NCBI GenBank assembly: GCA_043827405.1
Contig: JBDRPD010000058.1
Span: 1-15,702, forward strand
Direction: 5' to 3'
Source: Elusimicrobiota bacterium
Lineage (GTDB): Bacteria > Elusimicrobiota > Elusimicrobia > UBA1565
DNA length: 15,702 nucleotides
Shown here: one piece after another, positions 2,854 to 15,702 of the stretch
Numbering within the stretch: position 1 is the stretch's first letter
Layout: each line of letters opens with the position of its first letter
Notes under the pieces: generated by a model
Databases searched by the model: none
Told to the model about the DNA's origin: nothing
What the model saw: the letters and a program-made list of their open reading frames with translations, nothing else
Made by a program: the position numbers and the translations under genes

Positions 2854-3231
2854 ATGACCAATAGAAAACGGATTCTGATCGTTGACGACGAAGCGACCAT
2901 CCGCCGGGTGCTGTCGCGGCTGCTCGCCGGCTCCGGCCACGAGATCATGACGGCCGAAGACGGGCGCGAGGCGCTCGAGATGATCCAGCAGCGTCCGCCG
3001 GACCTGGTGCTGCTCGACATCAATATGCCGCGGCTCGGCGGCATGCGGCTGCTGGAGCTGGTCAAGAAAATCCGACCCGGTCTGCCGGTGATCATGGTAA
3101 CGGGGGTCGATGATCCGGACCAGGCTCTCGCCACCATGAGCCTCGGGGCTGAAGACTACGTCACCAAGCCCTTCGACTTCGACTACATCGACACCGCAAT
3201 CAAGGCCAACCTGGCCGCACGCTGCGTCTAG
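2854..3231 (+). CDS. Single-domain response regulator receiver (CheY-like)
   Basis: RILIVDDE, DLVLLDINMP (phospho-Asp), VIMVTG, DYVTKPF. RBS GGAGG upstream. Confidence 0.93.
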   Translation: MTNRKRILIVDDEATIRRVLSRLLAGSGHEIMTAEDGREALEMIQQRPPDLVLLDINMPRLGGMRLLELVKKIRPGLPVIMVTGVDDPDQALATMSLGAEDYVTKPFDFDYIDTAIKANLAARCV

Positions 3232-3235
3232 CGAG

Positions 3236-4585
3236 TCACTTCCTGGGCTTGGTGATTTTGTATTCCTTCAGCTTGCGCCACAGGGTATTGCGGCCGATGC
3301 CGAGGCGCTTGGCGGTTTCGACCTGGTTGCCGCCGCAGATCTCGAGCGCCTTGACGATATGCTCGCGCTCGATCTCGCTGAGGCGCTGCAGCCCGCGCGC
3401 CTCGGCCGCCGCGGGCTGGGTCTCCGGCGGCAAATCCTCGACGCCGATCTCGTCTTCCGACGACATGATGACCGCGCGTTCGACCGCGTGCTCGAGCTCG
3501 CGGACATTGCCCGCCCAGACATGCGCGCGCAGCAGCTTGGCGGCGTGGGGGGAGAAGCGCAGCGCCTCCCGGCCGTGCCGGCCGCAGGCGATCTTCAGGA
3601 AGTGCTCGGCCAGAGGCAGGATGTCTTCCGGACGCTCGCGCAGCGGCGGGATCACGATGGGGAAGACGTTGAGGCGGTAGTACAGGTCATCGCGGAACGC
3701 GTTCTCATCCATCGCCTTCTTGAGGTCGCGGTTGGTGGCGGTGACGATGCGCGCGTTGACCTTGATATTGCGGTTCTCGCCGACGCGGCGAATCTCGCCC
3801 GACTGCAGCGCCCGCAGAAGCTTGACCTGCAGCGCCGGCGACATCTCGCCGATCTCGTCGAGAAACAGGGTCCCGTCCTTGGCCTCTTCGAACAAGCCGC
3901 GCTTGTTTACCACCGCGCCGGTAAACGAGCCCCGGGCATGCCCGAACAGCTCGCTTTCCAGCAGCCCCTCGGGCAGGGCGCCGCAGTTGACGGCGACGAA
4001 GGAGTTGCTGCGCCGGCCGCTGGCGGAGTGGATGGCCCGGGCGATGAGCTCCTTGCCGGTGCCGGACTCGCCTTCGATGAGCACCGAGGCGTCGGTCGCC
4101 GCGACCTTGCGCACGAGCTCCAGGACGCGGTGAAAGGCGGGGCTCACATAGACGATATTCTCGAAGCTGAACTTGCCGCGCACCTGAGCGCGCAGGTGTT
4201 CGACTTCGCGCAGCAGCCGGTTGCGCTCCAGCGCCTTATGCACCGCGATGCCCAGCGACTCGGGCTCCACCGGCTTGGTCAGATAGTCGAAGGCGCCGGC
4301 CTTCATCGCGCGCACGGCCGAATCCACCGTGCCGTGGCCCGTGATCACGATCACCTGGGCCTCGGGGCGGCGGCGCTGGGACTCCTCCAGGACTTTGAAG
4401 CCGTCGACACCCGGCATCTTGAGGTCGGTGATGACGAGGTCGAAGCTCGACTTCGCCAGCTCCTGGAGCGCTTCCTCGCCGCCCGCGACGGCCGTGACCT
4501 GGACGCCCAGGCGCTTGAGCTCCAGGTTGAGAACCGTCCGCAGCGAGGTGTCGTCTTCGGCAAAAAGCACTTTCGGCGCAGTCAT
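3236..4585 (-). CDS. Sigma54-dependent response regulator (NtrC/AtoC/ZraR family bEBP): REC + AAA+ + Fis HTH
   Basis: Receiver (AEDD, VITDLKMP, KP), Walker A GESGTGKE, ESELFGH, GSFTGA loop, Walker B LFLDEIG, DLYYRLNV, WAGNVRELE, C-terminal HTH TAKRLGIGRNTLWRKL. The start overlaps the kinase stop (ATGA). Confidence 0.96.
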   Translation of the reverse strand: MTAPKVLFAEDDTSLRTVLNLELKRLGVQVTAVAGGEEALQELAKSSFDLVITDLKMPGVDGFKVLEESQRRRPEAQVIVITGHGTVDSAVRAMKAGAFDYLTKPVEPESLGIAVHKALERNRLLREVEHLRAQVRGKFSFENIVYVSPAFHRVLELVRKVAATDASVLIEGESGTGKELIARAIHSASGRRSNSFVAVNCGALPEGLLESELFGHARGSFTGAVVNKRGLFEEAKDGTLFLDEIGEMSPALQVKLLRALQSGEIRRVGENRNIKVNARIVTATNRDLKKAMDENAFRDDLYYRLNVFPIVIPPLRERPEDILPLAEHFLKIACGRHGREALRFSPHAAKLLRAHVWAGNVRELEHAVERAVIMSSEDEIGVEDLPPETQPAAAEARGLQRLSEIEREHIVKALEICGGNQVETAKRLGIGRNTLWRKLKEYKITKPRK

Positions 4586-6222
4586 GCACCCTCCTGTTCG
4601 GCGGGCAGCGTAATCTGGATAACGCAGCCGCCTTCCGGCCCGTCCTCGATGCGGATGCGTCCGCCATGCGACGACACGATGCGTTCGGCCACGGCCAGCC
4701 CGAGCCCGGTGCCCTTCTCCTTCGTCGTGTGAAAAGGCTGAAACACCTTGGCGCGCTCCTCCGGCGGGATGCCGGGGCCGGTATCGGCCACGCGCAGCAC
4801 CGCCTTGCCGGCCTGCACCCGGGTGCTGATGGTCAGCGTCCCTTCGCCGCCCATGGCCTGGATCGCGTTGAGGAGCACGTTCCAGACCACCTGCCGTATC
4901 TGGTCGGCGTCGAAGCGAAACGCCCGCAGCTCCTTATCGAGCTCCAGCAGGATTTCGACGTCGCCCAGCGCCTCCGGCGCCGAGCGCACCATGCTCAGCG
5001 TCTCGTCGATGGCCCGGTTGAGGTCGCCGACCTCCAGGTTCTGCTCGCGCGGCCGGGCATACTGCAGAAACTGGGTCAGCGTGTCGTTGAGGCGCTTGCT
5101 CTCCTCGCGGATCACCTGCAGCAGCGTGTTCTTATCCTCGGCGGGCAGGTCGGCGCGCGAGATCGAGCTGGCGGCGGCGACGATCGAGCCGAGCGGATTG
5201 CGGATCTCATGCGCCACGACCGCCGCCATGGAGCCGACCGCGGCCAGCGATTCGTACTGCGCCAGACGGCGCTGCAGTTCCTCCTGATCGGCCAGGTCGA
5301 CCGCGTTGGAAACGAAACCGATGATGTCGTCCGCCTCGTTGCGCACCGCGGTGATCGAGATCAGGACCGGGACCTCCTCGCCGTCCTTGGTGCGGTTGAC
5401 GATGCGTCCCCGCCAGAAGCCCTGGGCCGGATCGAGGATGTCGTGCCACAGCCGCTTGTAGAGGCTCTCGGGTGTGCGGGGGGAACGGATAATGCGGGGC
5501 GTGCGGCCGACCGCCTCCTCGCGGGTATAGCCGAAGCGCCGCACGAAAGCGTCGTTGACATCAAGGACCACGCCGTGCTGATCGGTATAGAACATGAAGT
5601 CGTTGGACTTGAGGAAGGCCTGGTAAAAGGCGAGCGCCCGCCGCTCATGCTGGTTCTGCTCGGCGAGGTCGCGGCCGATGCAAAGGACGAGCTCACGGCC
5701 GCCGATGATGACCGGGTCGATGCGCAGCTCGGTATCCACCGTGCTGCCGTCCTTGCGGCTCAGCGGCGTGATCGTGGAGTCCGCGCCGCCCGCGCCGACC
5801 AAGCGGCGCAGCTCGGCGATGTCCTTCTCGCTCGCCACCAAGGCGAAAAAATCCTTGCCGAGCAATTCCCGGCGCTCGCGGCCAAGCAGGCGGCAGGCCG
5901 AGGGGTTCACGTCCACCAGCAACCCCGACTCCGGTTCATAAAGCAGGATCATATCCGCCGCCGAATCGAACAGGCGCCGGTACTTCATCTCGTTTTCCCG
6001 CAGACGGACGAACATCGGGTTGATCAGGAACAGGTAAACGGCCGCTCCGGAAGCGACGCAGGCGACCGCGGCCGCGGCGGAAAGCTGCGCCGCCCAAGCG
6101 AAATGTTCCTGGGCGCCGGCGGCATGCAGGGTAAGGAACGCCGTACCGGCGACCAGCGCCGTCACCCCCGCGAGAACCAGCACCAAGTATCCGATTTGCC
6201 GACGGTTTGTCATCACCGGCAT
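4582..6222 (-). CDS. Membrane-anchored PAS-PAS sensor histidine kinase (NtrB-like)
   Basis: Two N-terminal TM helices, two PAS/PAC domains, H-box VAHEIRNPLG, N-box NVLLNAIQAM, DTGPGI, FQPFHTTK, GTGLGL. The likely start is ATG 6222 or 6213; the ORF extension to 6369 runs through the AT-rich promoter. Confidence 0.93.
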   Translation of the reverse strand: MPVMTNRRQIGYLVLVLAGVTALVAGTAFLTLHAAGAQEHFAWAAQLSAAAAVACVASGAAVYLFLINPMFVRLRENEMKYRRLFDSAADMILLYEPESGLLVDVNPSACRLLGRERRELLGKDFFALVASEKDIAELRRLVGAGGADSTITPLSRKDGSTVDTELRIDPVIIGGRELVLCIGRDLAEQNQHERRALAFYQAFLKSNDFMFYTDQHGVVLDVNDAFVRRFGYTREEAVGRTPRIIRSPRTPESLYKRLWHDILDPAQGFWRGRIVNRTKDGEEVPVLISITAVRNEADDIIGFVSNAVDLADQEELQRRLAQYESLAAVGSMAAVVAHEIRNPLGSIVAAASSISRADLPAEDKNTLLQVIREESKRLNDTLTQFLQYARPREQNLEVGDLNRAIDETLSMVRSAPEALGDVEILLELDKELRAFRFDADQIRQVVWNVLLNAIQAMGGEGTLTISTRVQAGKAVLRVADTGPGIPPEERAKVFQPFHTTKEKGTGLGLAVAERIVSSHGGRIRIEDGPEGGCVIQITLPAEQEGA

Positions 6223-6232
6223 ATTAACATTT

Positions 6233-6270
6233 TGCACTAGATTGGAACATTGATGAACCATATCGGCACA
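6233..6270. promoter_or_regulatory. Two tandem 17-bp NtrC-like pseudo-palindromic boxes (candidate bEBP binding sites)
   Basis: TGCACTAGATTGGAACA (6233-6249) matches the NtrC site TGCACCAWWWTGGTGCA at 13/17. TGAACCATATCGGCACA (6254-6270) is a similar box. The centres are 21 bp apart. Confidence 0.55.
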
Positions 6271-6281
6271 AATTATATATA

Positions 6282-6298
6282 CTGGCGATATTGTTGCT
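6282..6298 (+). promoter_or_regulatory. Sigma54 (-24/-12) promoter for the downstream operon
   Basis: CTGGCGATATTGTTGCT has GG (6284-5), N10, GC (6296-7), fitting YTGGCACNNNNNTTGCW. It lies in the AT-rich spacer divergent from the bEBP operon; predicted TSS about 6309. Confidence 0.75.
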
Positions 6299-6339
6299 AT
6301 TATGTAATATATTGCCTTGTCCTGGCACACATTTTTACC

Positions 6340-7437
6340 ATGAATAACCCCAGTCTCGGCCTGAAGCAAAAGTCACAAAACTATCAGCTTCTGCAGGGCC
6401 GCCTCACGGCGGCCAAATGGATCAGCATGCGGGAGCCGGAAGTAGGCAGGGAGATCGCCGAGCTTGAGAAAGACTCGATGTTCCAGGATCTCCTGTACGG
6501 CGCGCCGGGGCTCAATCCGATCGTCAAGCGCATGCGCTGGCCGGCCTCGAGCATCCATTCCGGATTCTATGAGCTCAACGACGGGATAGTCGCAGCCAGC
6601 GGAGAAAGCGACATCCAGGATATTCTGCACGCCAAGGAGGAGCTCATCGAGGTAATCCGCGGCATCGGCATCGAGGCGTTCGAGAAGTATTTCCTCTACG
6701 GAGAAGAGGGCCTGCCGCTGGCGCACGCCTGCCGGGAACTCGCGCTGTCCGAAGAGCAGGGCCGCGCGATCATGGACCTGGTGCTGAAGGTCGGGACGCG
6801 TTCCGAGTTCTTTCGCCCGACCCTTTCCGCCGAGACCTCGGGCATCCGCTACCACTGCATCGCATCGATCGAGAAGGACATCCGCGAGCCGGACAACCTG
6901 TTTTTTCGCTTTCTCTCGCCGCACTGGGCGCGCGGGAAGTACGTCATCGCCTACGAGCGTCTGGAGGAATGGAAAAGCGAACGCGCCGGCGACACGGCGC
7001 AGCGGCGCCGCCTGCGCAAGCTGCTCAAGCGCGTCGAGCTCCTGAATATGCGCCAGGACACGCTCTTTCAAATCCTGTCGCGCGCGACCAATGCGCAGTC
7101 CTCGTTTCTGCGCAGCCGGATGAAAGCGCGGCGGCGTCCGCTAAGCCTGCGCGAGCTCGCCCGCCGCATCGGCGTCGCGCCGAGCACGGTCAGCCGCTCC
7201 ATCGCCAACCGCTCGGTCGAGCTCCCGTGGAGCGAGGAAGTGCCGATCAAAGAGCTGCTTTCCGGCCAGCGCGTGGTGGTGCTGTCGATTCTGCAGGACT
7301 GGCACGACGCCGGCGGCCTCGGCAAAGGCGTGACCGACGAAATGCTCATGCGCCGCCTGGCGGAGGAAACCGGGATCAACGTATCGCGGCGCACCATAAA
7401 CGACTGCCGGCGAAAGCTGCCGCACTCCGGGCCGTGA
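6340..7437 (+). CDS. Divergent, shortened sigma54 (RpoN)-like factor, 365 aa
   Basis: Region I-like Q/L-rich N-terminus (LGLKQKSQNYQLLQG...ISMREPEVGREI), RQDTL..I...Q..F segment, HTH RPLSLRELARRIGVAPSTVSRSIANR, TDEML...GINVSRRTINDCR (canonical ARRTVAKYR). ATG 6340 is preferred over 6250. Confidence 0.82.
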   Translation: MNNPSLGLKQKSQNYQLLQGRLTAAKWISMREPEVGREIAELEKDSMFQDLLYGAPGLNPIVKRMRWPASSIHSGFYELNDGIVAASGESDIQDILHAKEELIEVIRGIGIEAFEKYFLYGEEGLPLAHACRELALSEEQGRAIMDLVLKVGTRSEFFRPTLSAETSGIRYHCIASIEKDIREPDNLFFRFLSPHWARGKYVIAYERLEEWKSERAGDTAQRRRLRKLLKRVELLNMRQDTLFQILSRATNAQSSFLRSRMKARRRPLSLRELARRIGVAPSTVSRSIANRSVELPWSEEVPIKELLSGQRVVVLSILQDWHDAGGLGKGVTDEMLMRRLAEETGINVSRRTINDCRRKLPHSGP

Positions 7438-8228
7438 GCGCGCAGGGCTATTACCTGCCGCGCGAGCACGGGGGCTGGGCGCTGCTGGCCGCGCCGCCTC
7501 TCACCGGCATCGCCGCCGCCGGCGGCGGCGGCAGCACCGAGCTGTGGCTGTTCTGGGCGGCCCTGCTCGGCGCCTTCCTGCTGCGCACGCCGCTGGAAGC
7601 GTTTATCCGCCGGCCATCCGACCGCCGGGCGCTGTTTTTTCTGCTCGCCTACGGAGCGGCGGGCGGCGGCGCCGCCCTCCTGCTCATCACCCGCTACGGC
7701 CGCTGGGGACTCGCGCTCCTGGCGATCCCCGGCGTCGCGGCCATGCTGCTGCATATCCGGCTGAGCATCCGGCGGCGCGCGCAAAGCTCCCGGCAGGAAA
7801 TACTGGCCGTCGCGGTGCTGTGTCTCGGCGCGCCGGCCGCCCTGTACGTGAAGACCGGACATTTCGGCGCGCAGGCCGGCTGGCTGTGGCTGCTCAACAC
7901 CCTGTACTTCATCGGCCCGCTTTTCCACGTGAAGATGGCCATCGCCCAGTACGCTCTCATCGTCAACCGCAACGCGGAAAGGCGCTTCCGCGACCTGCGC
8001 CGGTCCGCCTGGACCTACCATGCGGCCGCGACGGCCGCCGCCGGCGCCCTGGTGTTCGCTTCCGTCGTGCCGCCGCTCGCCGGCGCGCCGTTTCTCCTCG
8101 CCGCGGGCAAGACGGTTTACCGCGGCCTGAGCGTTCCGGTATCGGACATCCGGCTCATCGGCTGGCAGGAGGTGGGCTATACGCTGCTCTTCGTCTGCCT
8201 GGTCGCGGCGGGGTACCTGGCGGGGTAG
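7434..8228 (+). CDS. YwiC-like family integral membrane protein
   Basis: GTG start overlaps the previous stop (GTGA). N-terminal LPREHGGW motif (YwiC P-x-Q/E-H-G-A/G-W), many hydrophobic segments, C-terminal IRLIGWQE. Confidence 0.8.
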   Translation: MSAQGYYLPREHGGWALLAAPPLTGIAAAGGGGSTELWLFWAALLGAFLLRTPLEAFIRRPSDRRALFFLLAYGAAGGGAALLLITRYGRWGLALLAIPGVAAMLLHIRLSIRRRAQSSRQEILAVAVLCLGAPAALYVKTGHFGAQAGWLWLLNTLYFIGPLFHVKMAIAQYALIVNRNAERRFRDLRRSAWTYHAAATAAAGALVFASVVPPLAGAPFLLAAGKTVYRGLSVPVSDIRLIGWQEVGYTLLFVCLVAAGYLAG

Positions 8229-8265
8229 CGCCGCCGATTTTTATACAATAAGCTCCGCGCCGTCC

Positions 8266-9210
8266 ATGGAACGCCTCGACCTCAAGCTCGGCTTCACCTG
8301 CAACAACCGCTGCCGCTTCTGCGTCCAAGGCGACAAGCGCGCGCGCTTCGGCGCCCGCACGTCCGCCGACATCGACGCATTCCTGCGCCGGGGACGGGCG
8401 CGCGGCGCCTCCGCTTTGGTGCTGACGGGCGGCGAGCCGACGGTTCATCCCACGCTGCCCGGCACCGTCCGCCTGGCCGCCGCCCTCGGCTTCACGACCA
8501 TCCAGATCCAGACCAACGGCCGCCGCTTTTTCTACGCCGACTATTGCCGGGAGCTGCTGGCGGCCGGCGTCACCGAATTCTCGCCCGCCCTGCACGGCTC
8601 AAGCCCGGAGATTCACGACGGGCTGACCCGCGCGCCGGGAAGCTTCCAGCAGACGCTCCAGGGCATCCGCAACCTCAAGGAGCTGGGAGCCTTCGTCCTC
8701 ACCAATACGGTCGTCACCACGCGCAACTACCGGGACCTGCCGGAGCTGGCGCGGCTCTTCACCCAGCTCGGCGTCGACCAGTTCCAGTTCGCCTTCATGC
8801 ATATCGTCGGCGAAGCCGGCGCCAACAAGGACGAGCTGACGGTGCGCAAGACCACGGCGATGCCCTTTATCCAGCGCGCGCTCGACATCGGGCGCGCGGC
8901 GGGGACCCGCTGCTACACCGAAGCGGTCCCCTACTGCCTGATGCGTGGCTATGAGGACTGCGTGGCCGAGAAGATCATTCCCCGGACCATGGTCTTTGAC
9001 GCCGAGACCATCATCGACGACTACACCCAGTACCGCCATACCGAAGGCAAGGCTAAGGGCCCGCGCTGCGCGCAGTGCCGTCACGATGCCGAATGCGAGG
9101 GCCCGTGGAAGGAATACGCGCAGATGTTCGGCTGGGAAGAGTTCAAGCCGGCAGCGCAGAAGAAAAAGAAGAGTAAGAAGAAGACGGCAAAAAAGCATGC
9201 TGAAAGATAA
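8266..9210 (+). CDS. Radical SAM protein with C-terminal Cys cluster (HxsC-like / SPASM-twitch-like)
   Basis: CNNRCRFC, LTGGEPT, IQTNGR, HDGLTR.PGSF.QT..GI, VPYC, and C-terminal CAQCRHDAECEG. Lys-rich tail. Confidence 0.9.
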   Translation: MERLDLKLGFTCNNRCRFCVQGDKRARFGARTSADIDAFLRRGRARGASALVLTGGEPTVHPTLPGTVRLAAALGFTTIQIQTNGRRFFYADYCRELLAAGVTEFSPALHGSSPEIHDGLTRAPGSFQQTLQGIRNLKELGAFVLTNTVVTTRNYRDLPELARLFTQLGVDQFQFAFMHIVGEAGANKDELTVRKTTAMPFIQRALDIGRAAGTRCYTEAVPYCLMRGYEDCVAEKIIPRTMVFDAETIIDDYTQYRHTEGKAKGPRCAQCRHDAECEGPWKEYAQMFGWEEFKPAAQKKKKSKKKTAKKHAER

Positions 9211-10147
9211 GGACGATCTGTCCTGGTACGCGCGAAAAGCAGGAAGCGCTCGCGCGGGCGAAATGGACGCCGGCCCCGCCGCCGCCGCGGCGGAGGGACC
9301 CGTCGCCGAACTGCTGGCCGAGCTCAAGCGCGACGGCAGCAAAGGCTCTTTTGCGGCCCGCACCTTGTACACCCGGCGCCTTCCTCCCGGCTGCCGCAGC
9401 TGCCTGGGCGGCAAAGGCAGCAACCTGTACGTCACCGGCCTATGCACGCGGGACTGCTTCTTCTGCTTCAACAGCAAGCCGCGCCAGGACGAGCTCGTCG
9501 TTCACGGGATCAAGGTAGAGCAGCCCGAAGAGGCGGCCGAGATCGTGACCCGCTACGGCCTGCGCAGCATCGGGATCAGCGGCGGAGAGCCGCTGCTGTT
9601 TCCCGACCGCGTGCTGCGCATCATCCGCAGCCTGCGGGCGCTCCCCGAGCGCGTCCGCATCGATCTCTACACCAACGGCGACCTCGCGACCGACGAGCTG
9701 CTGCGCCAGCTGAAAGAAGCGGGGCTCGACGCCCTGCGCTTCAACCTGGCGGCCCGCGGCTACGACACCGATCCGGTCGAGCGCGCGCTGCGCGTTTTCG
9801 CCGAGGTCACCGTCGAGATCCCCGTAATCCCGGCGGAGCTGGAGCACCAGAAGGCCATGGTGCTCGGGCTCGACGAGCTGGGCGCGCCGTTTCTCAACAT
9901 CCACGAGCTTTTCTCCTGCGCCGAAAACCGCGCCCAGGTCACCGCGGAGGGCGGCCCTGAGAAAGCGGCCGCGGACGCCTCCCTGCTGCTGTGGAAGCCG
10001 GTGCAAAACGGCGAAGAGGCGGCCCTGCGGCTGCTGCACTTCGCGCTGACGAACACCCGGCAGCTGTCCGTATATTACTGCTCCTGCCGCACGCAGGAGA
10101 CGATCAGCGAGCGCGGCCTGCGCCGCCGCAGGCGGCTGGGCCGATGA
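9197..10147 (+). CDS. Radical SAM protein, MJ0021/COG2108-like
   Basis: Probable ATG 9197 (MLKDKDD), overlapping the previous gene by 14 nt. LPPGCRSCLGG followed by LYVTGLCTRDCFFC, ISGGEPLL, LYTNG, AGLDALRFN, VEIPVIP, FLNIHE, C-terminal YYCSC. Confidence 0.85.
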   Translation: MLKDKDDLSWYARKAGSARAGEMDAGPAAAAAEGPVAELLAELKRDGSKGSFAARTLYTRRLPPGCRSCLGGKGSNLYVTGLCTRDCFFCFNSKPRQDELVVHGIKVEQPEEAAEIVTRYGLRSIGISGGEPLLFPDRVLRIIRSLRALPERVRIDLYTNGDLATDELLRQLKEAGLDALRFNLAARGYDTDPVERALRVFAEVTVEIPVIPAELEHQKAMVLGLDELGAPFLNIHELFSCAENRAQVTAEGGPEKAAADASLLLWKPVQNGEEAALRLLHFALTNTRQLSVYYCSCRTQETISERGLRRRRRLGR

Positions 10148-11016
10148 AGCGCCGCGACGCGGTCATCGTGGGCGGCGGACCGGCGGGACTGACCGCCGGC
10201 TTCTACCTGGCGCGCGCGGGCTTCAGCACGCTGCTGCTCGAAGCCGGCCAGCTCGGCGGCCGGGCGGCGCGCATTCCGACGCTCCACAACTACCCCGGCT
10301 TTCCGCTGGGCATTGCCGGCCGAACGCTGATGCGCCGCATGGTCCGGCAGGCCGCATGCTGGGGCCTCGACACGGAATGCGCGCAGGTTCGCCTGCTTGA
10401 ACACCGCGCGGACGGCTGGCGCATCGAGCTCGCGGGAGGAGAGGTCCGCCGCGGGAAGGCGGTTCTCATCGCCACCGGCACGGAGTTTCTGCCGCTCGGC
10501 GTCCCGGGCGAGCGGCCGCTTACGGGCAAGGGCGTGCGGCATGCCGTGTTCGATAACGCCCGCCGCTACGCCGGCCGGCGCGTCGGCGTGGTCGGCGGCG
10601 GCGAAGCCGCCGCGCACCAGGCGCTGGCGCTGGCGAAGCATGCGGAAAAAGTCGTACTCTTCGTGCGCGGGCGGGAGATCAAGGCGATCCGTCCGCTGCG
10701 GGACGCGCTGGCGAACAGCTCCCGCATCGAGCTGCGGCGCGGCGTGCGCGTGCGCCGCCTGCTCGGAGACCGGCGCCTTGCGGGCGTCGAGTGGGAGCGC
10801 GGCGCGCGCCGGCGGCGCGAGGAGCTGGACGCGCTGTTCGTGCTTGTGGGCCAGCGGCCGCATCTCCCGGCGCGGCGCGGGACGGGGGGGAAGCGCTCCC
10901 TGTTTATCGCGGGCGACGCGCGCCGCGGCGCGGTGCGCCATGTGGTGGCGGCGGCGGCCGACGGCATGGCGCGCGCCATGGAGTGCGAACGTTTTTTGCG
11001 AGGCTGGACGAAATGA
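10144..11016 (+). CDS. Thioredoxin-reductase-fold FAD/NAD(P) oxidoreductase lacking CxxC
   Basis: ATGA overlap. DAVIVGGGPAGLTAG, NYPGF, IATG, LGVPGE, VVGGGEAA, FIAGD. GKGVRHAVFD replaces the GVSYCATCD redox motif. Confidence 0.88.
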   Translation: MKRRDAVIVGGGPAGLTAGFYLARAGFSTLLLEAGQLGGRAARIPTLHNYPGFPLGIAGRTLMRRMVRQAACWGLDTECAQVRLLEHRADGWRIELAGGEVRRGKAVLIATGTEFLPLGVPGERPLTGKGVRHAVFDNARRYAGRRVGVVGGGEAAAHQALALAKHAEKVVLFVRGREIKAIRPLRDALANSSRIELRRGVRVRRLLGDRRLAGVEWERGARRRREELDALFVLVGQRPHLPARRGTGGKRSLFIAGDARRGAVRHVVAAAADGMARAMECERFLRGWTK

Positions 11017-11972
11017 CGCAGAGCAGATCGATCGAGATCGAAACCCGGCGGGACGTCCCGGGCGTCGGGACCCTGTATCTCGCCCGGCGGCGCGGCGATC
11101 CCGGCCGGCAGATCGAATTCATCGAAGCGACCGACCCCGGAACCCCGCGCTCCGACAAGTGGATCCTCATGATCTCCACGCAGTTCGGCTGCGCCGTCAG
11201 CTGCGCGATGTGCGACGCCGGAGCGGCGGGCTATCACGGCAACCTGACTTTGCCGGAGCTGCGCGACCAGATCCTGACGGTGTTCGACGCCCGGCCGGAG
11301 ACCGCCGCCGGCGAGGTCAAGAAGCTCAAGCTGCACTTCGCCCGCATGGGCGAGCCCAGCTTCAACCCCGAAGTCCTGCGCTGCATCGAAGAGCTGGGAA
11401 GTGAAGGCCGCCTGCCCGGGCTGGTGCCGAGCATCTCTTCCGTAGCGCCGAGCTGCCGCGGCACCCTCGACTTCTTCGAGGAGCTGTTCCGGCTCAAGGA
11501 GCGCTGGTTTTCCGGCGGCCGCTTCCAGCTGCAGTTCTCCGTGCACTCCACCGACGAAGCGGCCCGGCGCGCGCTGATCCCGATCCGCAAGTGGGACCTG
11601 GAAGACATCGCCGCCGTGGGCCGGCGCTGGTACCGCGAGGGCGACCGCCGGGTGACGCTGAACTTCGCCCTGTCCAGGGAAGCCCCCTGCGATCCCGCTA
11701 TCGTCGCGCGGCTGTTTTCGCCGCGCAGCTTTCTCATCAAGTTCACGCCGATCCATCCGACCGCGCGCGCCGACAGCAGCGGCCTGACCGCCAACTGGTA
11801 CCAAGCGCCCGAACGCATAACGTCTCTGACCTCCGAGCTGGAGCGGCGCGGCTACCAGGTCATCGTCAATGCGCCGTGGCCGGAAGAGATTCTGAGCCAT
11901 GCAAGCTGCGGCCAGCTCGCCCGCGCCGCCGCCGAACAGCCGCGCCCGGAGGCGGCGGCGCCCGCGTGCTGA
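11013..11972 (+). CDS. RlmN/Cfr-related (COG0820-like) radical SAM protein, atypical
   Basis: ATGA overlap. ISTQFGCAVSCAMC, ARMGEPSFN, LQFSVHS, C-terminal SCGQL. 319 aa, with no RlmN N-terminal helical domain evident. Confidence 0.87.
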   Translation: MTQSRSIEIETRRDVPGVGTLYLARRRGDPGRQIEFIEATDPGTPRSDKWILMISTQFGCAVSCAMCDAGAAGYHGNLTLPELRDQILTVFDARPETAAGEVKKLKLHFARMGEPSFNPEVLRCIEELGSEGRLPGLVPSISSVAPSCRGTLDFFEELFRLKERWFSGGRFQLQFSVHSTDEAARRALIPIRKWDLEDIAAVGRRWYREGDRRVTLNFALSREAPCDPAIVARLFSPRSFLIKFTPIHPTARADSSGLTANWYQAPERITSLTSELERRGYQVIVNAPWPEEILSHASCGQLARAAAEQPRPEAAAPAC

Positions 11973-12637
11973 AGCGCGCCTACGCGGCACCCGCGAACAT
12001 CGCCGCCAAGACCCGCCGCTGGATGCGCGCCCTGGCACCCTATGCGCGGCCCGCGCCCCCGCTGCGCGTCCGGCGCGCCGCCCTGCTCGTCGTCGACATG
12101 CAGACGTTCTTTCTCGACGCGGACAGCCCGGCGCGCCTGCCGGCCGCCGCGGCCGCCTTGCCCGCGATACGGCGGCTGATCGAGGCGGCCCGCGCCGCCC
12201 AGCGCCCCGTCGCCTATACCGTCTATGCGAGCGCGGCCAAATCCAGCGGCCATCCGATGCGCCGCTGGTGGCGGCGGCCCTGCCCGCCGAACAGCCGCTG
12301 GGCCAAGCTCGGGGGGGAGCTGCGCCGCGAGCGCGGCGAGAAGGTGTTTGCGAAGGCGGGCTACAGCGCTTTGCGCGCTACCCGGCTGCATGCCTGGCTC
12401 CGGACCCGCCGCATCACGGATCTGATCGTGACGGGAGTGCTGACCAACCTCTGCGTTGAGTCCACGGTGCGCGACGCTTTCGACGCCGGCTACCGCGTCT
12501 TTGTAGCCCCGGATGCCTGCGCCGCGGCGACCGAAGATATGCATCTGGGCTCGCTAAAGAATATGGTGTCGGGCTTCGCATTTGTAGAGCAAACACAAAA
12601 GCTTTTTGCTACCATGACGAATCGTCGTGGAGGATAA
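11966..12637 (+). CDS. Isochorismatase/cysteine hydrolase family amidohydrolase
   Basis: GTG 11966 overlaps the previous stop. ALLVVDMQ (Asp), FAKAGYSAL (Lys) and GVLTNLCVESTVRDAFD (Cys) show an intact catalytic triad. Confidence 0.9.
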   Translation: MLKRAYAAPANIAAKTRRWMRALAPYARPAPPLRVRRAALLVVDMQTFFLDADSPARLPAAAAALPAIRRLIEAARAAQRPVAYTVYASAAKSSGHPMRRWWRRPCPPNSRWAKLGGELRRERGEKVFAKAGYSALRATRLHAWLRTRRITDLIVTGVLTNLCVESTVRDAFDAGYRVFVAPDACAAATEDMHLGSLKNMVSGFAFVEQTQKLFATMTNRRGG

Positions 12638-14611
12638 ATGCAGCGCCTGTTGCTAACCACTGTTTGCCGTCCGATCGGCCCCGCCCAGGGCGACGCCCCG
12701 AGCGTGGGCTACGAGCTCCTGTACGGCCAGGTTACGCGCGCCCAGGGCGTCTTCAGCCCCCGCGCCACCCATGTCCAGTACGGCCTCGAGTATATCGCCA
12801 ATAACGTCGACGCCCCGACCACCGTTTTGCAGTATCCTTCGCGCCGCCAGCTGATCCGTGAGCTCAAGAAGGGCTACGACTATATCGGCATCGCCTTCAT
12901 CATGGCGACTTTTCATCACCTGAAGAGGATCGTGGCGCTGGTGCGCAAGCACTCGCCGCAGACCAAGATCGTGCTCGGCGGCTACGGCACCATCATGAGC
13001 GACGAGGAGCTCGCGCCCTACTCCGACCATATCTGCCGCGAGGAGGGCGTCGCCTATACGCGCCGCCTGCTCGGCGAGCCGGAAAAGAAGATGCCCTACG
13101 ATCATCCGACGGTGATCAGCAAGCTCAAGGTGTTCTCCATTCCGAGCAGCCGCACCGGCATGGTCTTCGCGGGGCTGGGCTGCGCCAACGGCTGCGATTT
13201 CTGCTGCACCTCGCACTTCTTCAAGCGGCGGCACATCCGCCTGCTGCCGACCGGCAAGGACATCTTCGACGTGCTGTGCCGCTATCAGAGCGAGCACGGC
13301 GTCGAGCAGTTCACCATCCTCGATGAGGACTTTCTGCTCAACAAAAAGCGCGCCATGGAGCTGCGCGCATGCTGCGTGCGCGAAAACCGCACCTTCTCCA
13401 TCTTCGCCTTCGCCAGCGTCCGCGCCCTCAACCAGTATACGCCCAAGGAGCTGCTGGAGATGGGCGTCGACGGGCTGTGGATCGGCTATGAAGGGACGCG
13501 CGCGGGCTACGACAAACAGAAGGGCGGCAAGCAGCCCGCCGAGCTGTTCCCGGAGCTGCGCCGCCACGGCATCCTGATTCTCGCCTCGATGATCGTCGGC
13601 TTCGACTATCAGGACCAGGAAGTAACCGCCGCCGAGCTGCGCGGGCTGCTGCGCCTGCGGCCGACGCTCGCCCAGTTCCTGATCTACGGCCCGACCCCGG
13701 GCACCCCGTTCTACGACCGGGTCATCAAAGAGGGGCGCATGCGGCCGGAGGTCTTCTCCGATCCCGACAATTACCGCCGCGAAGCCACGGGCTTCCGCTC
13801 CATGGTCACCCACCCCAAGATGTCCGCCGAGGAGATCGAGGGCCTGCAGCGCTGGTGCTTCGAGCGCGACTATCAGAGCCTCGGACCGTCGATGTTCCGC
13901 TCGATCCGGGAATGGCTCAGCGGCTTCGAGAACCTGCGCGCGTCGTCGAGCGTTATGCTGCGCCGCAAGGCCCTGCGCTTCGGCCGCGAAGTGCGCCGGG
14001 CCTATCCGCTGTTTTTGGCCGGCCGGATATTCGCCCCCAACAAACGGATCCGCCGCTGGCTCAAGGCTTTCGAGAAGCGCGCGCACCGGGACCTCGGCGC
14101 TCCCTCGCTGTGGGAGCAGGCGCTCTCTTTCGCCGCCGTCGGCGCCGCGGCCTGGACCCAATTCACGCTGCAGTTCGACTACTTCCAGCATCCGCGCCTG
14201 CCCATCGTCCGCCACCGCTGGGAAGGCCTGAGCGAGAAGTTCATGCGGCTGTGGGGTGAGGTCCGCGACGGCGGCCGAGCGGCCGAGCTCAAGGTGCTGT
14301 TCCAGCGCCGCCAGGCCGAGGGCTTCTCCTGGCTGCGGCTGGAAGGCGCGATGGATGAGAAGAACATGAAGCAGCTCAAGCGCCGCCTCAAGGCTTCGCT
14401 CAAGAGCGGACGCGAGCGCTTTGAAGTCAGCCTGGAGCACATCCAGTATGTGGACCGCAAAGGCCTCACCATGTTCTACAAGGTATTCCGCAAGTACCGG
14501 CGCTCCATGCGCCTCCAGCTGCCCGAAAGGCTGCCGGTTAAGGCTCCGGAGCTGAGCCGCGTGCTCCGCTACTTCACGCGCTGCGCGGGCCTGGGCTCGG
14601 CGCCCTCGTGA
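12638..14611 (+). CDS. Cobalamin-binding-domain radical SAM protein with C-terminal STAS-like domain
   Basis: RBS GGAGGA. N-terminal Rossmann-like segment (YDYIGIAF...KIVLGGYG), GCANGCDFC, ILDEDF, IGYE, IVGFD, PTPGTPFY. The tail LRLEGAMD...VSLEHIQYVDRKGL resembles STAS. Confidence 0.88.
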   Translation: MQRLLLTTVCRPIGPAQGDAPSVGYELLYGQVTRAQGVFSPRATHVQYGLEYIANNVDAPTTVLQYPSRRQLIRELKKGYDYIGIAFIMATFHHLKRIVALVRKHSPQTKIVLGGYGTIMSDEELAPYSDHICREEGVAYTRRLLGEPEKKMPYDHPTVISKLKVFSIPSSRTGMVFAGLGCANGCDFCCTSHFFKRRHIRLLPTGKDIFDVLCRYQSEHGVEQFTILDEDFLLNKKRAMELRACCVRENRTFSIFAFASVRALNQYTPKELLEMGVDGLWIGYEGTRAGYDKQKGGKQPAELFPELRRHGILILASMIVGFDYQDQEVTAAELRGLLRLRPTLAQFLIYGPTPGTPFYDRVIKEGRMRPEVFSDPDNYRREATGFRSMVTHPKMSAEEIEGLQRWCFERDYQSLGPSMFRSIREWLSGFENLRASSSVMLRRKALRFGREVRRAYPLFLAGRIFAPNKRIRRWLKAFEKRAHRDLGAPSLWEQALSFAAVGAAAWTQFTLQFDYFQHPRLPIVRHRWEGLSEKFMRLWGEVRDGGRAAELKVLFQRRQAEGFSWLRLEGAMDEKNMKQLKRRLKASLKSGRERFEVSLEHIQYVDRKGLTMFYKVFRKYRRSMRLQLPERLPVKAPELSRVLRYFTRCAGLGSAPS

Positions 14612-14615
14612 TGAC

Positions 14616-15236
14616 GTGAGCGCCTCGTACGTCTACCGCTACCAGGACGCGCTCTACGTCAACCTGACCAACCGCTGTCCGACGTCGTGCGTCTTCTGCG
14701 TGAAGGGTCCTTACCGCATGGATTATCGCGGGCTGGACCTCAGCCTCGGCGCGGAGCCCACAACCGAGCAGATCATGATGTCCCTGCGCGAGCAGGCGCC
14801 CTTGAGCGAGCTGGTCTTCTGCGGCTACGGCGAATCCACCTACCGCATGCCGGAGCTTATGGAAGTAAGCCGGACCGTACGCGCTGAATTCAAGGTCCCC
14901 GTACGGCTCAACACCATCGGCCTCGGCAGCCTGATCAATGGACGCGACATCAGCCAAGACCTGGCGGCCTGCCTTGACGCCGTCTCCATCAGCCTCAACA
15001 CGGCCGATCCGGAAAGCTGGCTGCGCCTGCATCGCCCACTGCCGGAATTCCGCAAAGAGGGCTTCGCCGCCGTCCTCGACTTCACCCGCGCCTGCGTCCG
15101 CGGCGGGCTCAGGACCGTCGCAACCGCCGTCGACTACCCGGAAAACGACCTCGCGGCCGTGGAAGCCCTGGCCGGCGAGCTCGGCGCCGCTTTCCGCCTG
15201 CGCCCCCGCCTCGAAGACGAGTGGAAAAAAGCCTGA
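14616..15236 (+). CDS. TatD-associated-type radical SAM protein (TIGR04038/TIGR04100-like)
   Basis: Y.Y...LYVNLTNRCPTSCVFC, ELVFCGYGE, VRLNT.GLGSLINGRD, SISLN, FRLR near the C-terminus. 206 aa, GTG start 4 nt after the previous stop. Confidence 0.88.
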   Translation: MSASYVYRYQDALYVNLTNRCPTSCVFCVKGPYRMDYRGLDLSLGAEPTTEQIMMSLREQAPLSELVFCGYGESTYRMPELMEVSRTVRAEFKVPVRLNTIGLGSLINGRDISQDLAACLDAVSISLNTADPESWLRLHRPLPEFRKEGFAAVLDFTRACVRGGLRTVATAVDYPENDLAAVEALAGELGAAFRLRPRLEDEWKKA

Positions 15237-15305
15237 TCCGGCGCACCCATTAGTCCTGAAACCGGGGGGGCCTCCCGCCCGCCCGCGCCTGCCCCGTTCG
15301 ACCCT

Positions 15306-15333
15306 TTGACCGTCGCCGCGACCGCGCTACTAT
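15306..15333 (+). promoter_or_regulatory. Sigma70 promoter, probably producing a leaderless mRNA
   Basis: TTGACC (15306-11), 16 nt spacer, TACTAT (15328-33). ATG 15339 lies 5 nt after the -10 element. Confidence 0.65.
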
Positions 15334-15338
15334 TAGGT

Positions 15339-15702
15339 ATGCGAAAACGAAGTTTCGCGCTTTATCTGCTGGCCGCGCTGACGGCCGTTCCGGCCTCGGC
15401 CGCCCGCATCGCCGCTCCGGTCGGCAAAGCCGCGCCGACGCTCCGACCCTTCACGCTCCCGGCCGTCGCCGCGCCGCTGTTCCGGCATAACGGCGGCGCC
15501 GGCATCTCGCTGCCCAAGCTCGATCCCGGCATTCTGACATCCGTCGCGACCCCCAATATTCTGCCGTCGATCCTATTCACCCAGCCGCGCACCGTTAAAG
15601 TGCAGGACCTGCGTCAGGCAACGGTCACGCCGGGCAAGGCCGCGGCCGCCGTCAAGCAGAGGGTGCAAGCCGCGTTCTCCGCGCTCTCCTCGGCCAAGAA
15701 CC
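15339..15702 (+). CDS. Secreted hypothetical protein, N-terminal part (runs off the window)
   Basis: Not in the ORF track because it has no stop. It reads MRKRSFALYLLAALTAVPASAARIAAPVGKAAPTLRPFTLPAVAAP..., a signal peptide plus Ala/Pro-rich linker, and is open to the window end. Confidence 0.75.
   Translation, partial: MRKRSFALYLLAALTAVPASAARIAAPVGKAAPTLRPFTLPAVAAPLFRHNGGAGISLPKLDPGILTSVATPNILPSILFTQPRTVKVQDLRQATVTPGKAAAAVKQRVQAAFSALSSAKN

Follow-up and report, generated by a model that had tools for sequence, protein, structure and literature searches.

A conserved triad of flavoprotein, RlmN/Cfr-like radical SAM and hydrolase genes in a nine-gene cluster of an Elusimicrobiota genome

What are five different radical S-adenosylmethionine (radical SAM) enzymes doing side by side in one bacterial gene cluster? 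The question is raised by nine genes, g1 to g9, which fill nt 6340–15236 of contig C58, a 15,702-bp sequence from an uncultured groundwater bacterium of the Elusimicrobiota. The window analysed here is the entire contig, and it belongs to a 4.33-Mb draft genome, G000, that is 98% complete. All nine open reading frames (ORFs) lie on the + strand, and their junctions measure −4, +37, −14, −4, −4, −7, 0 and +4 nt. Their translations contain five CxxxCxxC motifs of radical SAM enzymes: CNNRCRFC in g3, CTRDCFFC in g4, CAVSCAMC in g6, CANGCDFC in g8 and CPTSCVFC in g9. A preliminary description, made from the sequence alone, took the nine genes for a sigma-54-controlled operon of an undescribed biosynthetic or modification system; its strands, junctions and motifs are all exact.

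We read the nine genes as a mosaic, namely a radical SAM tailoring cluster, probably driven by sigma-54, arranged around the three genes g5-g6-g7. Its reaction would be the radical alkylation of a small heterocyclic compound; in Elusimicrobia this would most likely be a tetrapyrrole. The probability of this reading is put at about 0.45. In the following, L with a number denotes a locus in another genome, G a genome, and C a contig of G000.

The conserved unit of the cluster

The three central genes encode a flavoprotein with the fold of thioredoxin reductase (g5, nt 10144–11016), a radical SAM core resembling RlmN and Cfr (g6, nt 11013–11972) and an isochorismatase-family cysteine hydrolase (g7, nt 11966–12637, GTG start). 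A profile of g6 found 485 relatives in contigs from one genome per species, and the counts given here rest on the best 80 loci, 40 of Elusimicrobia type and 40 from other phyla. The order g5-g6-g7 is intact in 36 of the 40 Elusimicrobia-type loci. The 40 loci of other phyla read g7-g5-g6 (24), g5-g6 (12) or g6 alone (4); Chloroflexota/Anaerolineales, Planctomycetota, Desulfobacterota, Zixibacteria, Acetothermia and Thermoplasmata archaea are among these phyla. Clustering of ORFs and Pfam assignment in the 40 other-phyla loci revealed no neighbour beyond the triad that is common to loci across phyla.

The three genes are also found joined. The search for g6 homologues gave 3982 matches at E≤1e-20 among 8000 candidates scored, and 81 of the best 120 are g6-g7 fusions of 509–556 residues that carry PF00857. 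A search for longer forms, checked with Pfam, added 3 further g6-g7 fusions and 2 g5-g6 fusions; the latter (P0124 and P0125) begin with Pyr_redox_2 and end with Radical_SAM. g5, g6 and g7 are functionally coupled, moving together across phyla and sometimes fused. The triad thereby offers a compact three-gene target for heterologous expression.

The distribution within the phylum is uneven. g6 is present in 27 of 41 close relatives, and in 6 of the 151 genomes of an even sample within the phylum, none of them in the small-genome families. Where the Elusimicrobia loci leave room for it, g4 adjoins the triad in 9 of 36 and g8 is at most 4 kb away in 13 of 26; the corresponding counts in other phyla are 0 of 29 and 0 of 26. 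A g3-like gene is found upstream in 7 of the 40 Elusimicrobia-type loci, g9 in 2 and g1 in 2.

The same picture emerges from g8. A search of 40 relatives recovered full-length g8 orthologues (52–66% identity) in 12 genomes and fragments in 3 more, and 16 loci around the g8 matches were compared by tblastn with all window proteins. g6 is present in 12 of these loci, g7 in 10, g5 in 9, g4 in 7, a g3-like gene (27–32% identity) in 3 and g9 in 1; g1 and g2 are in none. Gene calls in the high-GC loci of the relatives were based on third-position GC and are crude, so that starts and small genes may be miscalled in places.

The unit of conservation is thus the g5-g6-g7 triad across phyla, and g4 to g8 recur together within the family only. 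Among the loci compared, g4 and g8 are add-ons confined to Elusimicrobia, and g1, g2, g3 and g9 are local. The preliminary description had made its pathway depend on whether the gene set co-occurs in other genomes. Part of it does, as g4–g8 in the family and as g5-g6-g7 across phyla, and because of this the locus is not a chance collection; but the nine genes do not form a conserved unit.

There is a narrower form of the chance explanation, in which everything apart from the triad is largely accretion, that is, unrelated Fe-S genes that happen to share a promoter, in a genome with many genes of this kind. The near absence of g1, g2, g9 and g3-like genes from the 16 loci agrees with it, as do the cluster edges, which differ between genomes, the many radical SAM paralogues of G000 and a terminator-like hairpin after g2. 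Such accretion is nevertheless improbable. The overlaps of 4–14 nt from g3 to g7 suggest translational coupling, and only 0 and 4 nt precede g8 and g9. Moreover, several genera have g4 and g8 together with the triad, the g3-type genes recur upstream in the 7 of 40 loci mentioned above, and in two other genomes the cluster begins with a g1-type sigma factor gene.

The triad proteins and their possible chemistry

Window proteins were assigned to families by Pfam and NCBIfam profile scans against curated cut-offs. g6 scores 60.3 bits with the RlmN model TIGR00048, for which 290 are needed, and 50–52 bits with the Cfr models (468–550). A true RlmN is encoded elsewhere in G000, on C60, and reaches 302 bits against the cut-off of 290. 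The g6 family keeps two hallmarks of the class: CxxxCxxC occurs in 80 of 80 members, and a C-terminal CG(Q/H/M) motif, aligned with the ACGQL of solved RlmN, in 78 of 79. In E. coli RlmN we take the methyl-carrier Cys to be C355 and the resolving Cys to be C118, 7 residues before the cluster motif. The RlmN of G000 has a Cys at this −7 position. No Cys lies within the 12 residues before the cluster motif in any of the 80 g6 family members, and residue −7 is M, I, L, T or Q.

The N-terminal part of the protein is also reduced. The match of g6 to RlmN begins at profile position 100 of 355, which is chain residue 109–117 of the solved structures, and the cluster motif stands at residue 60 in g6 versus 117 in the RlmN of G000 (about 57 residues less N-terminal sequence). 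The median net charge of the g6 family is 0 for 39 Elusimicrobia members and −3 for 37 others, with median isoelectric points (pI) of 7.2 and 6.0; the window protein has a pI of 7.6. The corresponding values for the RlmN of G000 are +24 and 10.2. Judged by sequence, g6 is not RlmN: it keeps the class-A core and the methyl-carrier Cys at the RlmN position, but the N-terminal accessory domain, the resolving Cys and the basic charge are gone. A further difference from RlmN and Cfr is its partnership with a flavoprotein and a cysteine hydrolase, to which it is sometimes fused. We know of no counterpart to this pairing and fusion in RlmN or Cfr.

The retention of the class-A fold and the methyl-carrier Cys, together with the loss of the RNA-binding equipment and the resolving thiol, leads us to infer a small-molecule substrate with an electron-poor sp2 carbon. 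To our knowledge, the only class A radical SAM methylases described so far, RlmN and Cfr, act on RNA. The g6 family, a widespread sister family of RlmN/Cfr, points to new radical chemistry on a small molecule.

Outside its own family, the structural neighbours of g6 in a protein atlas include phage-encoded radical SAM clusters and a Bacillota fusion family of PNP_UDP_1, QueT and radical SAM domains (template modelling (TM) score 0.82 by query). These neighbours hint at nucleobase or nucleoside chemistry. The Pfam and NCBIfam scans of g6 named no queuine lyase, and no direct comparison with the QueL sequence was made.

The flavoprotein g5 shares the fold of thioredoxin reductase and stays below its equivalog score (TIGR01292, 170 bits versus 343). 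The redox-active CAIC of the solved enzyme aligns with AVFD, and no more than 2 of 73 homologues have a Cys in these alignment columns. g5 keeps the glycine motifs for flavin adenine dinucleotide (FAD) and NAD(P)H, GxGxxG and GxGxxA, and has no dithiol. The hydrolase g7 scores 149.6 bits with PF00857 (cut-off 27) and has the Asp-Lys-Cys triad of isochorismatase-like cysteine hydrolases; the catalytic residues Asp44, Lys130 and Cys163 are invariant in 58 of 58 homologues.

From these features the following chemistry can be proposed. A methylene radical bound to the Cys of g6 would attack not RNA but a small, electron-poor heterocycle, at one of its sp2 carbons. g5 would pass electrons from NAD(P)H to the [4Fe-4S] cluster, or would resolve or reduce the adduct in place of the missing Cys. 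g7 would hydrolyse an amide or ester on the substrate or the product. In Elusimicrobia the triad would be extended by g4, by g8, which might perform a second C-methylation or a rearrangement step, and by variable g3-type radical SAM enzymes. The cluster would be switched on by its own module, in which a PAS kinase acts on an NtrC-type activator and this on g1.

This scheme agrees with two suggestions of the preliminary description. An electron supply of its own is encoded in the form of g5, which is even fused to some g6 homologues, and there are two candidate methylating enzymes, the class-A-like g6 and g8 with a predicted class-B fold.

A bolder version of the scheme can be drawn, which we regard as unlikely to hold in full. 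The triad would be an autonomous class-A radical SAM system powered by NAD(P)H, would C-methylate or in another way alkylate a small heterocycle poor in electrons, of tetrapyrrole, pterin or purine/pyridine type, and would be the first non-RNA member of the RlmN/Cfr mechanistic class. The flavoprotein, or a Cys of the hydrolase, would replace the resolving Cys. With g4 and g8 added, it would in groundwater Elusimicrobia provide or modify what the group VI nitrogenase-like (Nfl) pathway makes, under a private circuit of sigma-54, bacterial enhancer-binding protein and kinase.

A known precedent for such logic is the anaerobic haem degradation by ChuW/HutW and ChuY. There an sp2 carbon of the tetrapyrrole is the target of a radical SAM methyltransferase, whose action is followed by that of an NAD(P)H-dependent reductase. 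The methyltransferases ChuW/HutW belong to the HemN-like enzymes (class C), and ChuY is not a flavoprotein of the thioredoxin reductase fold. g6 is class-A-like instead, and no haem-binding protein was identified in the window.

Tetrapyrrole context and alternative substrates

The case for a tetrapyrrole comes from the surroundings of the triad in Elusimicrobia. Group VI Nfl paralogues with a large set of radical SAM proteins were reported from groundwater Elusimicrobia (Méheust et al. 2020, bioRxiv 10.1101/765248), and a 2026 review (PMC13474568) singles out group VI as a group without a characterised member. G000 carries this system. C101 (nt 1030–18251) carries three NifH-like genes, two of them as NifH-NifD fusions of about 800 residues, along with NifD/K-like genes and five radical SAM genes, one of B12 type. 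C74 (nt 3572–22645) has at least 11 radical SAM genes in a row, one encoding a 799-residue HemN-like/HxsC4-like double radical SAM protein, followed by two NifD/K-like genes. The two contigs together contain at least 16 radical SAM genes. Seven paralogues of g3 are found in G000, on C74 and C107, the closest (47% identity) at C74:19050–19931 directly before the NifD/K-like genes.

The cluster therefore shares with the published suite its phylum and habitat type, a genome in which Nfl-like genes are flanked by radical SAM genes, and a g3-type family multiplied there. In relatives the link is physical. The triad, or a g4-g6-g8-g9 block, lies 4–18 kb from Nfl genes and in the same direction in four genomes (G005, G023, G032 and G034). 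The arrangement in G034, G032 and G023 is NflHD, NflDK, further genes, a radical SAM gene, a g3-like radical SAM gene, further genes and then g5-g6-g7, all within 8–18 kb, so that the triad ends the Nfl supercluster. At L012, which is on the contig of L029 (GWA2_69_24), the g4-g6-g8-g9 block comes after NifH-like genes. Because the triad is genomically tied to the group VI Nfl and radical SAM system, its substrate in Elusimicrobia would most likely be a tetrapyrrole-type cofactor intermediate or a salvaged tetrapyrrole.

Other neighbours in the phylum belong to tetrapyrrole and iron metabolism. L040 and L050 have an AhbD/NirJ2-like radical SAM gene (402–412 bits) upstream of the triad and co-directional with it, directly before it in L040 and two genes before it in L050. 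A TP_methylase gene is inside the L022 cluster, and BchE, the best curated match of the window's g8, is a further hint of tetrapyrroles. FeoB and DtxR-FeoA genes are neighbours in L011, L014 and L015, and a TonB-dependent receptor gene stands between g7 and g8 in L024.

The conserved unit is hence smaller than the preliminary description held, being the triad, and the system present in the phylum is larger, being the Nfl-radical SAM suite. The claim that the system is undescribed holds for the triad: literature searches on gene clusters of RlmN-like or class A radical SAM, isochorismatase and thioredoxin reductase genes found no description of it. It does not hold for the Nfl-radical SAM suite, which is present in G000 and was noted in print, uncharacterised, by Méheust et al. 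(2020). The text of that preprint does not describe the triad, an isochorismatase or a sigma-54 paralogue; its supplementary figures or tables may show some of the genes. The triad and its Elusimicrobia add-ons provide concrete, testable partners for the uncharacterised group VI Nfl system.

Several observations weigh against a tetrapyrrole tailoring cluster. No Nfl gene is on the 15.7-kb window contig, which is separate from the contigs carrying the suite, and none is in the first 12 kb of C23, on which the locus continues. Of 41 related genomes, 15 have NifH-like genes and 26 do not; g6 is present in 11 of the former and 16 of the latter, and the triad is found in many phyla for which the text of Méheust et al. 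(2020) reports no group VI paralogues. The triad is largely independent of Nfl. We considered whether it might be an Nfl accessory everywhere and rejected this, the association (11/15 versus 16/26) being weak. The neighbours in other phyla are mixed and include adenosine deaminase, XdhC, a MobA-like transferase, a beta-eliminating lyase and TGT; some of them point to pterins, the molybdenum cofactor (Moco) or purines, not to tetrapyrroles. L012 and L015, otherwise similar to the other loci, read g4-g6-g8 without g5 and g7, and all homologues come from uncultured genomes. The small N-heterocycle as putative substrate, like the rest of the proposed chemistry, is suggested by family resemblance and gene context. 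Finally, the promoter motif before g1 overlaps a palindrome, and a terminator-like hairpin lies between g2 and g3; a single nine-gene transcript is therefore only plausible.

The mixed neighbours raise the possibility that the triad, with the MoaA-like g4, handles a pterin cofactor or its precursor in the tailoring or maturation of a molybdenum or tungsten cofactor for a molybdoenzyme. A gene for XdhC, the family of Moco insertion chaperones, directly follows g6 in 5 of 14 Chloroflexota/Anaerolineales loci (L069:10969–12039, L093:8584–9648 and L106:4450–5676, confirmed with Pfam, and also L085 and L091). A MobA-like nucleoside triphosphate transferase gene adjoins the triad in L103, and a gene for a pterin-binding enzyme is present in L075. 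In family f1, MoaE is directly upstream of g4 in L016 and L026, and MogA-like, MoeA and TatC genes are upstream in L014. The best curated matches of g4 are MoaA models, and the radical SAM/SPASM protein on C23 best matches a tungsten-cofactor maturase model (94 bits, cut-off 380). NrfD and cytochrome c genes at the left end of the window, and a molybdopterin oxidoreductase gene upstream in L013, fit as well. However, all the similarity scores are far below their cut-offs, and since the XdhC loci are related to one another they represent few independent events. The MoaE and MoeA neighbours are limited to one family, where they may reflect inherited synteny, and most triad loci have no Moco gene nearby. 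A pterin or Moco role is accordingly given a small chance.

Tetrapyrrole tailoring must also be set against RNA modification, in which g6 would be one more methyltransferase of RlmN/Cfr type, with rRNA or tRNA as its target, and its neighbours would be unrelated to it. Among curated families and solved structures g6 has indeed no relatives other than RlmN and Cfr, its methyl-carrier Cys motif is retained, and many g6 homologues are automatically annotated as "23S rRNA (adenine2503-C2)-methyltransferase". This explanation is rendered very improbable by the score of 60 bits against a cut-off of 290, by the absence of the RNA-binding N-terminal region and the resolving Cys from 80 of 80 members, by the near-neutral or acidic character of the family as opposed to the pI of 10.2 of the RlmN of G000, by the genuine RlmN elsewhere in that genome, and by the pairing and fusion of g6 with a flavoprotein and a hydrolase.

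Maturation of a ribosomally synthesised and post-translationally modified peptide (RiPP), or of a protein, by g3 with its SPASM/twitch-like end, the B12-type g8 and the others would suit the weak matches of g3 and g8 to peptide-maturase models (HxsC, sactipeptide maturases and ApyD) and the fact that clusters rich in radical SAM genes are typical of RiPP loci, but it has a slim chance: gaps of at most 37 nt leave no space for a precursor gene inside the operon, ORF clustering, which covered ORFs of at least 60–70 residues and was not accompanied by a dedicated small-ORF search, found no conserved small ORF, the family scans found no gene for a protease, a transporter or leader recognition (RiPP recognition element, RRE) in the window, and the triads of other phyla recur without a radical SAM/SPASM partner.

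Control of the cluster and the accompanying genes

The first gene of the cluster, g1 (nt 6340–7437, ATG start), encodes a short, divergent relative of sigma-54 of 365 residues. Its score with TIGR02395 is 62.7 bits, below the 277 required, and PF04552 matches residues 232–360 with 48.9 bits (cut-off 22.8). In the sequence the DNA-binding domain alone is recognisable (Pfam Sigma54_DBD, the helix-turn-helix (HTH)/RpoN-box region). The structural model has a predicted local distance difference test (pLDDT) value of 80.5, and its 31 highest-ranking Foldseek matches in the PDB are without exception sigma-54 chains, of which 22 reach E≤1e-3. They align over 300–446 columns with probabilities of up to 1.0, the TM score being only 0.25–0.38. 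According to the predicted model, g1 is a sigma-54 paralogue with the sigma-54 fold.

G000 has two sigma-54-like genes only, both of about 365 residues (g1 and C91:7368–8456). No canonical RpoN, and no match to Sigma54_CBD (PF04963), was found anywhere in this 98% complete genome. By PF00158 there are two sigma-54 activators only, one on C38 and the NtrC-type gene of the window. The latter (nt 3236–4585, − strand) has a receiver, an AAA+ and a Fis-type HTH domain (Pfam Response_reg 97.8, Sigma54_activat 237 and HTH_8 61.5 bits). It overlaps a gene for a PAS-PAS-HisKA-HATPase sensor histidine kinase (nt 4582–6369, − strand; Pfam PAS_9, HisKA and HATPase_c), which is divergent from g1. The true start of the kinase is probably near nt 6222, because its longest ORF extends into AT-rich intergenic DNA.

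The homologues of g1 comprise 54 proteins of 344–400 residues and two fragments, and every source name given is Elusimicrobia. Two of them head related clusters. L040 reads sigma-54-like gene, kinase, NtrC, AhbD-like radical SAM, g5, g6-g7, further genes and g8. L050, whose g1 homologue has 61% identity, reads sigma-54-like gene, Usp, AhbD-like radical SAM, AhpC, an unknown gene, g5, g6-g7 and g8. Because G000 has two sigma-54-like genes and two activators, and g1 homologues head the L040 and L050 clusters, the most economical reading is probably a private circuit that runs from the PAS kinase through the NtrC-type activator to g1. A short sigma-54 paralogue linked to a cluster, in a genome with two sigma-54-like genes and two activators, makes a tidy model of such a circuit.

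The sole sigma-54-type match on the + strand of the window is TGGCGATATTGTTGCT (nt 6283–6298), 41 nt upstream of the g1 ATG. It has the GG and GC of a −24/−12 element correctly spaced and agrees with the consensus at 9 of 11 positions. Its −24 part coincides with the right arm of an inverted repeat at nt 6256–6295, AACCATATCGGCA / TGGCGATATTGTT, whose 13-nt arms are 85% complementary and 14 nt apart. The repeat may be an operator, bound by a regulator or activator, instead of or besides the promoter element. Similar −24/−12-like motifs occur in relatives 15–30 nt before cluster genes, three in L050, all intergenic, and one in L033, 30 nt before g4; the background rate is 45 matches in 552 kb. 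When the region upstream of g1 was aligned with that of the L050 homologue, the two promoter-like motifs were not in register.

Sigma-54 control of the cluster is plausible. To this extent the preliminary description, which had argued for such control, is sustained by the motif and the activator, but it treated g1, itself a sigma-54 paralogue, merely under that heading. Its further idea of an anaerobically induced pathway is not directly supported.

g2 (nt 7434–8228, GTG start) encodes a YwiC-like membrane protein (Pfam YwiC, 63.2 bits). A hairpin followed by AUUUUUAU extends over its stop codon on the + strand (nt 8206–8236; −21.4 kcal/mol, z −2.53) and may act as a terminator or attenuator between g2 and g3. 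Since the hairpin with its U-run falls at the 37-nt gap, g1-g2 may be a unit separate from g3–g9, or there may be partial read-through.

The five radical SAM proteins fall into different subfamilies, as the preliminary description had proposed; their profile assignments are distinct, and g9 alone reaches a curated equivalog cut-off. g3 (nt 8266–9210) has a Cys-rich, twitch/SPASM-like C-terminal end and resembles HxsC4 and BlsE. It scores 170.9 bits with HxsC4 (NF038332, cut-off 500) and 93.8 bits with HxsC (TIGR03977, cut-off 267.9), and its nearest solved relative is BlsE (E 1.9e-18). g4 (nt 9197–10147) is outside the curated families and weakly resembles MoaA and viperin, its best curated matches, all of which are below cut-off.

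g8 (nt 12638–14611) narrowly misses the Pfam cut-offs for B12-binding (27.0 versus 32.1 bits) and Radical_SAM (27.7 versus 29.5 bits). No curated family reaches its cut-off with g8, and no match in the PDB was found by sequence; the best curated match of the window protein is BchE, and HpnJ matches more members of the g8 family, both weakly. The structural model (pLDDT 89.7) has TsrM, MgmA, AprD4, OxsB, TokK and CysS as top Foldseek matches, with probability 1.0. The model thus identifies a class B fold, with a Rossmann-type B12-binding domain followed by a radical SAM barrel, and makes g8 a putative cobalamin binder. Compared with known class B enzymes such as TsrM, TokK, CysS, MgmA and BchE, g8 adds a helical domain and a STAS domain at the C-terminus, the Pfam score of the latter being likewise near or below cut-off. 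The last 100 residues or so (about 550–650; nt 14200–14611) match the anti-sigma antagonists RsbV and TM1442 in Foldseek, which is the STAS fold, and this domain may serve to bind a partner or a ligand. At E≤1e-30 the g8 family numbers 265 representatives, mostly of about 520–560 residues without the C-terminal extension; of the best 150, only about 5 have the full g8 length.

A small chorismate-mutase-type (CM_2) gene lies directly 3′ of g8 in three loci of family f2 (L020:13966–14283, L022:13966–14241 and L024:13964–14317). A beta-eliminating lyase gene recurs as a neighbour in L040, L082 and L102.

The last gene, g9 (nt 14616–15236, GTG start), belongs to TIGR04038, the "TatD-associated" radical SAM family (169.5 bits, cut-off 129.7). 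Neither the window nor the five genes inspected in the opening 9.8 kb of C23 gave a TatD family match. The next ORF starts at nt 15306, has no family match and runs off the + strand end of the contig at nt 15702. The terminal 141 nt of C58 (nt 15562–15702) are identical to C23:1–141, so the locus continues on C23. The gene order there is the rest of the open ORF, a sixth radical SAM gene (radical SAM/SPASM, 306 residues), a type III glutamine synthetase gene (GlnA), a SpoIID/TPR gene and a spermine-synthase-like gene.

The stretch is present in groundwater metagenome runs. DNA contigs of metagenome X1 span nt 6200–15300 in three pieces, none with more than 4 differences; since X1 is possibly the source sample, its coverage is not independent support. 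Two metatranscriptome contig sets of the same study, X5 and X6, gave spurious matches of about 20 nt only when compared with the locus.

On the far side of the regulatory genes, the left end of the window (nt 2–1826 and 1802–2842) holds a gene for an NrfD-type membrane subunit, on the + strand and cut by the contig start, then a gene called on the − strand for a cytochrome c with two cbb3-type domains, and a 346-residue ORF without a family match. A stand-alone receiver protein gene (nt 2854–3231) is also found there. In L013 a molybdopterin oxidoreductase-NrfD-multihaem set likewise precedes the cluster.

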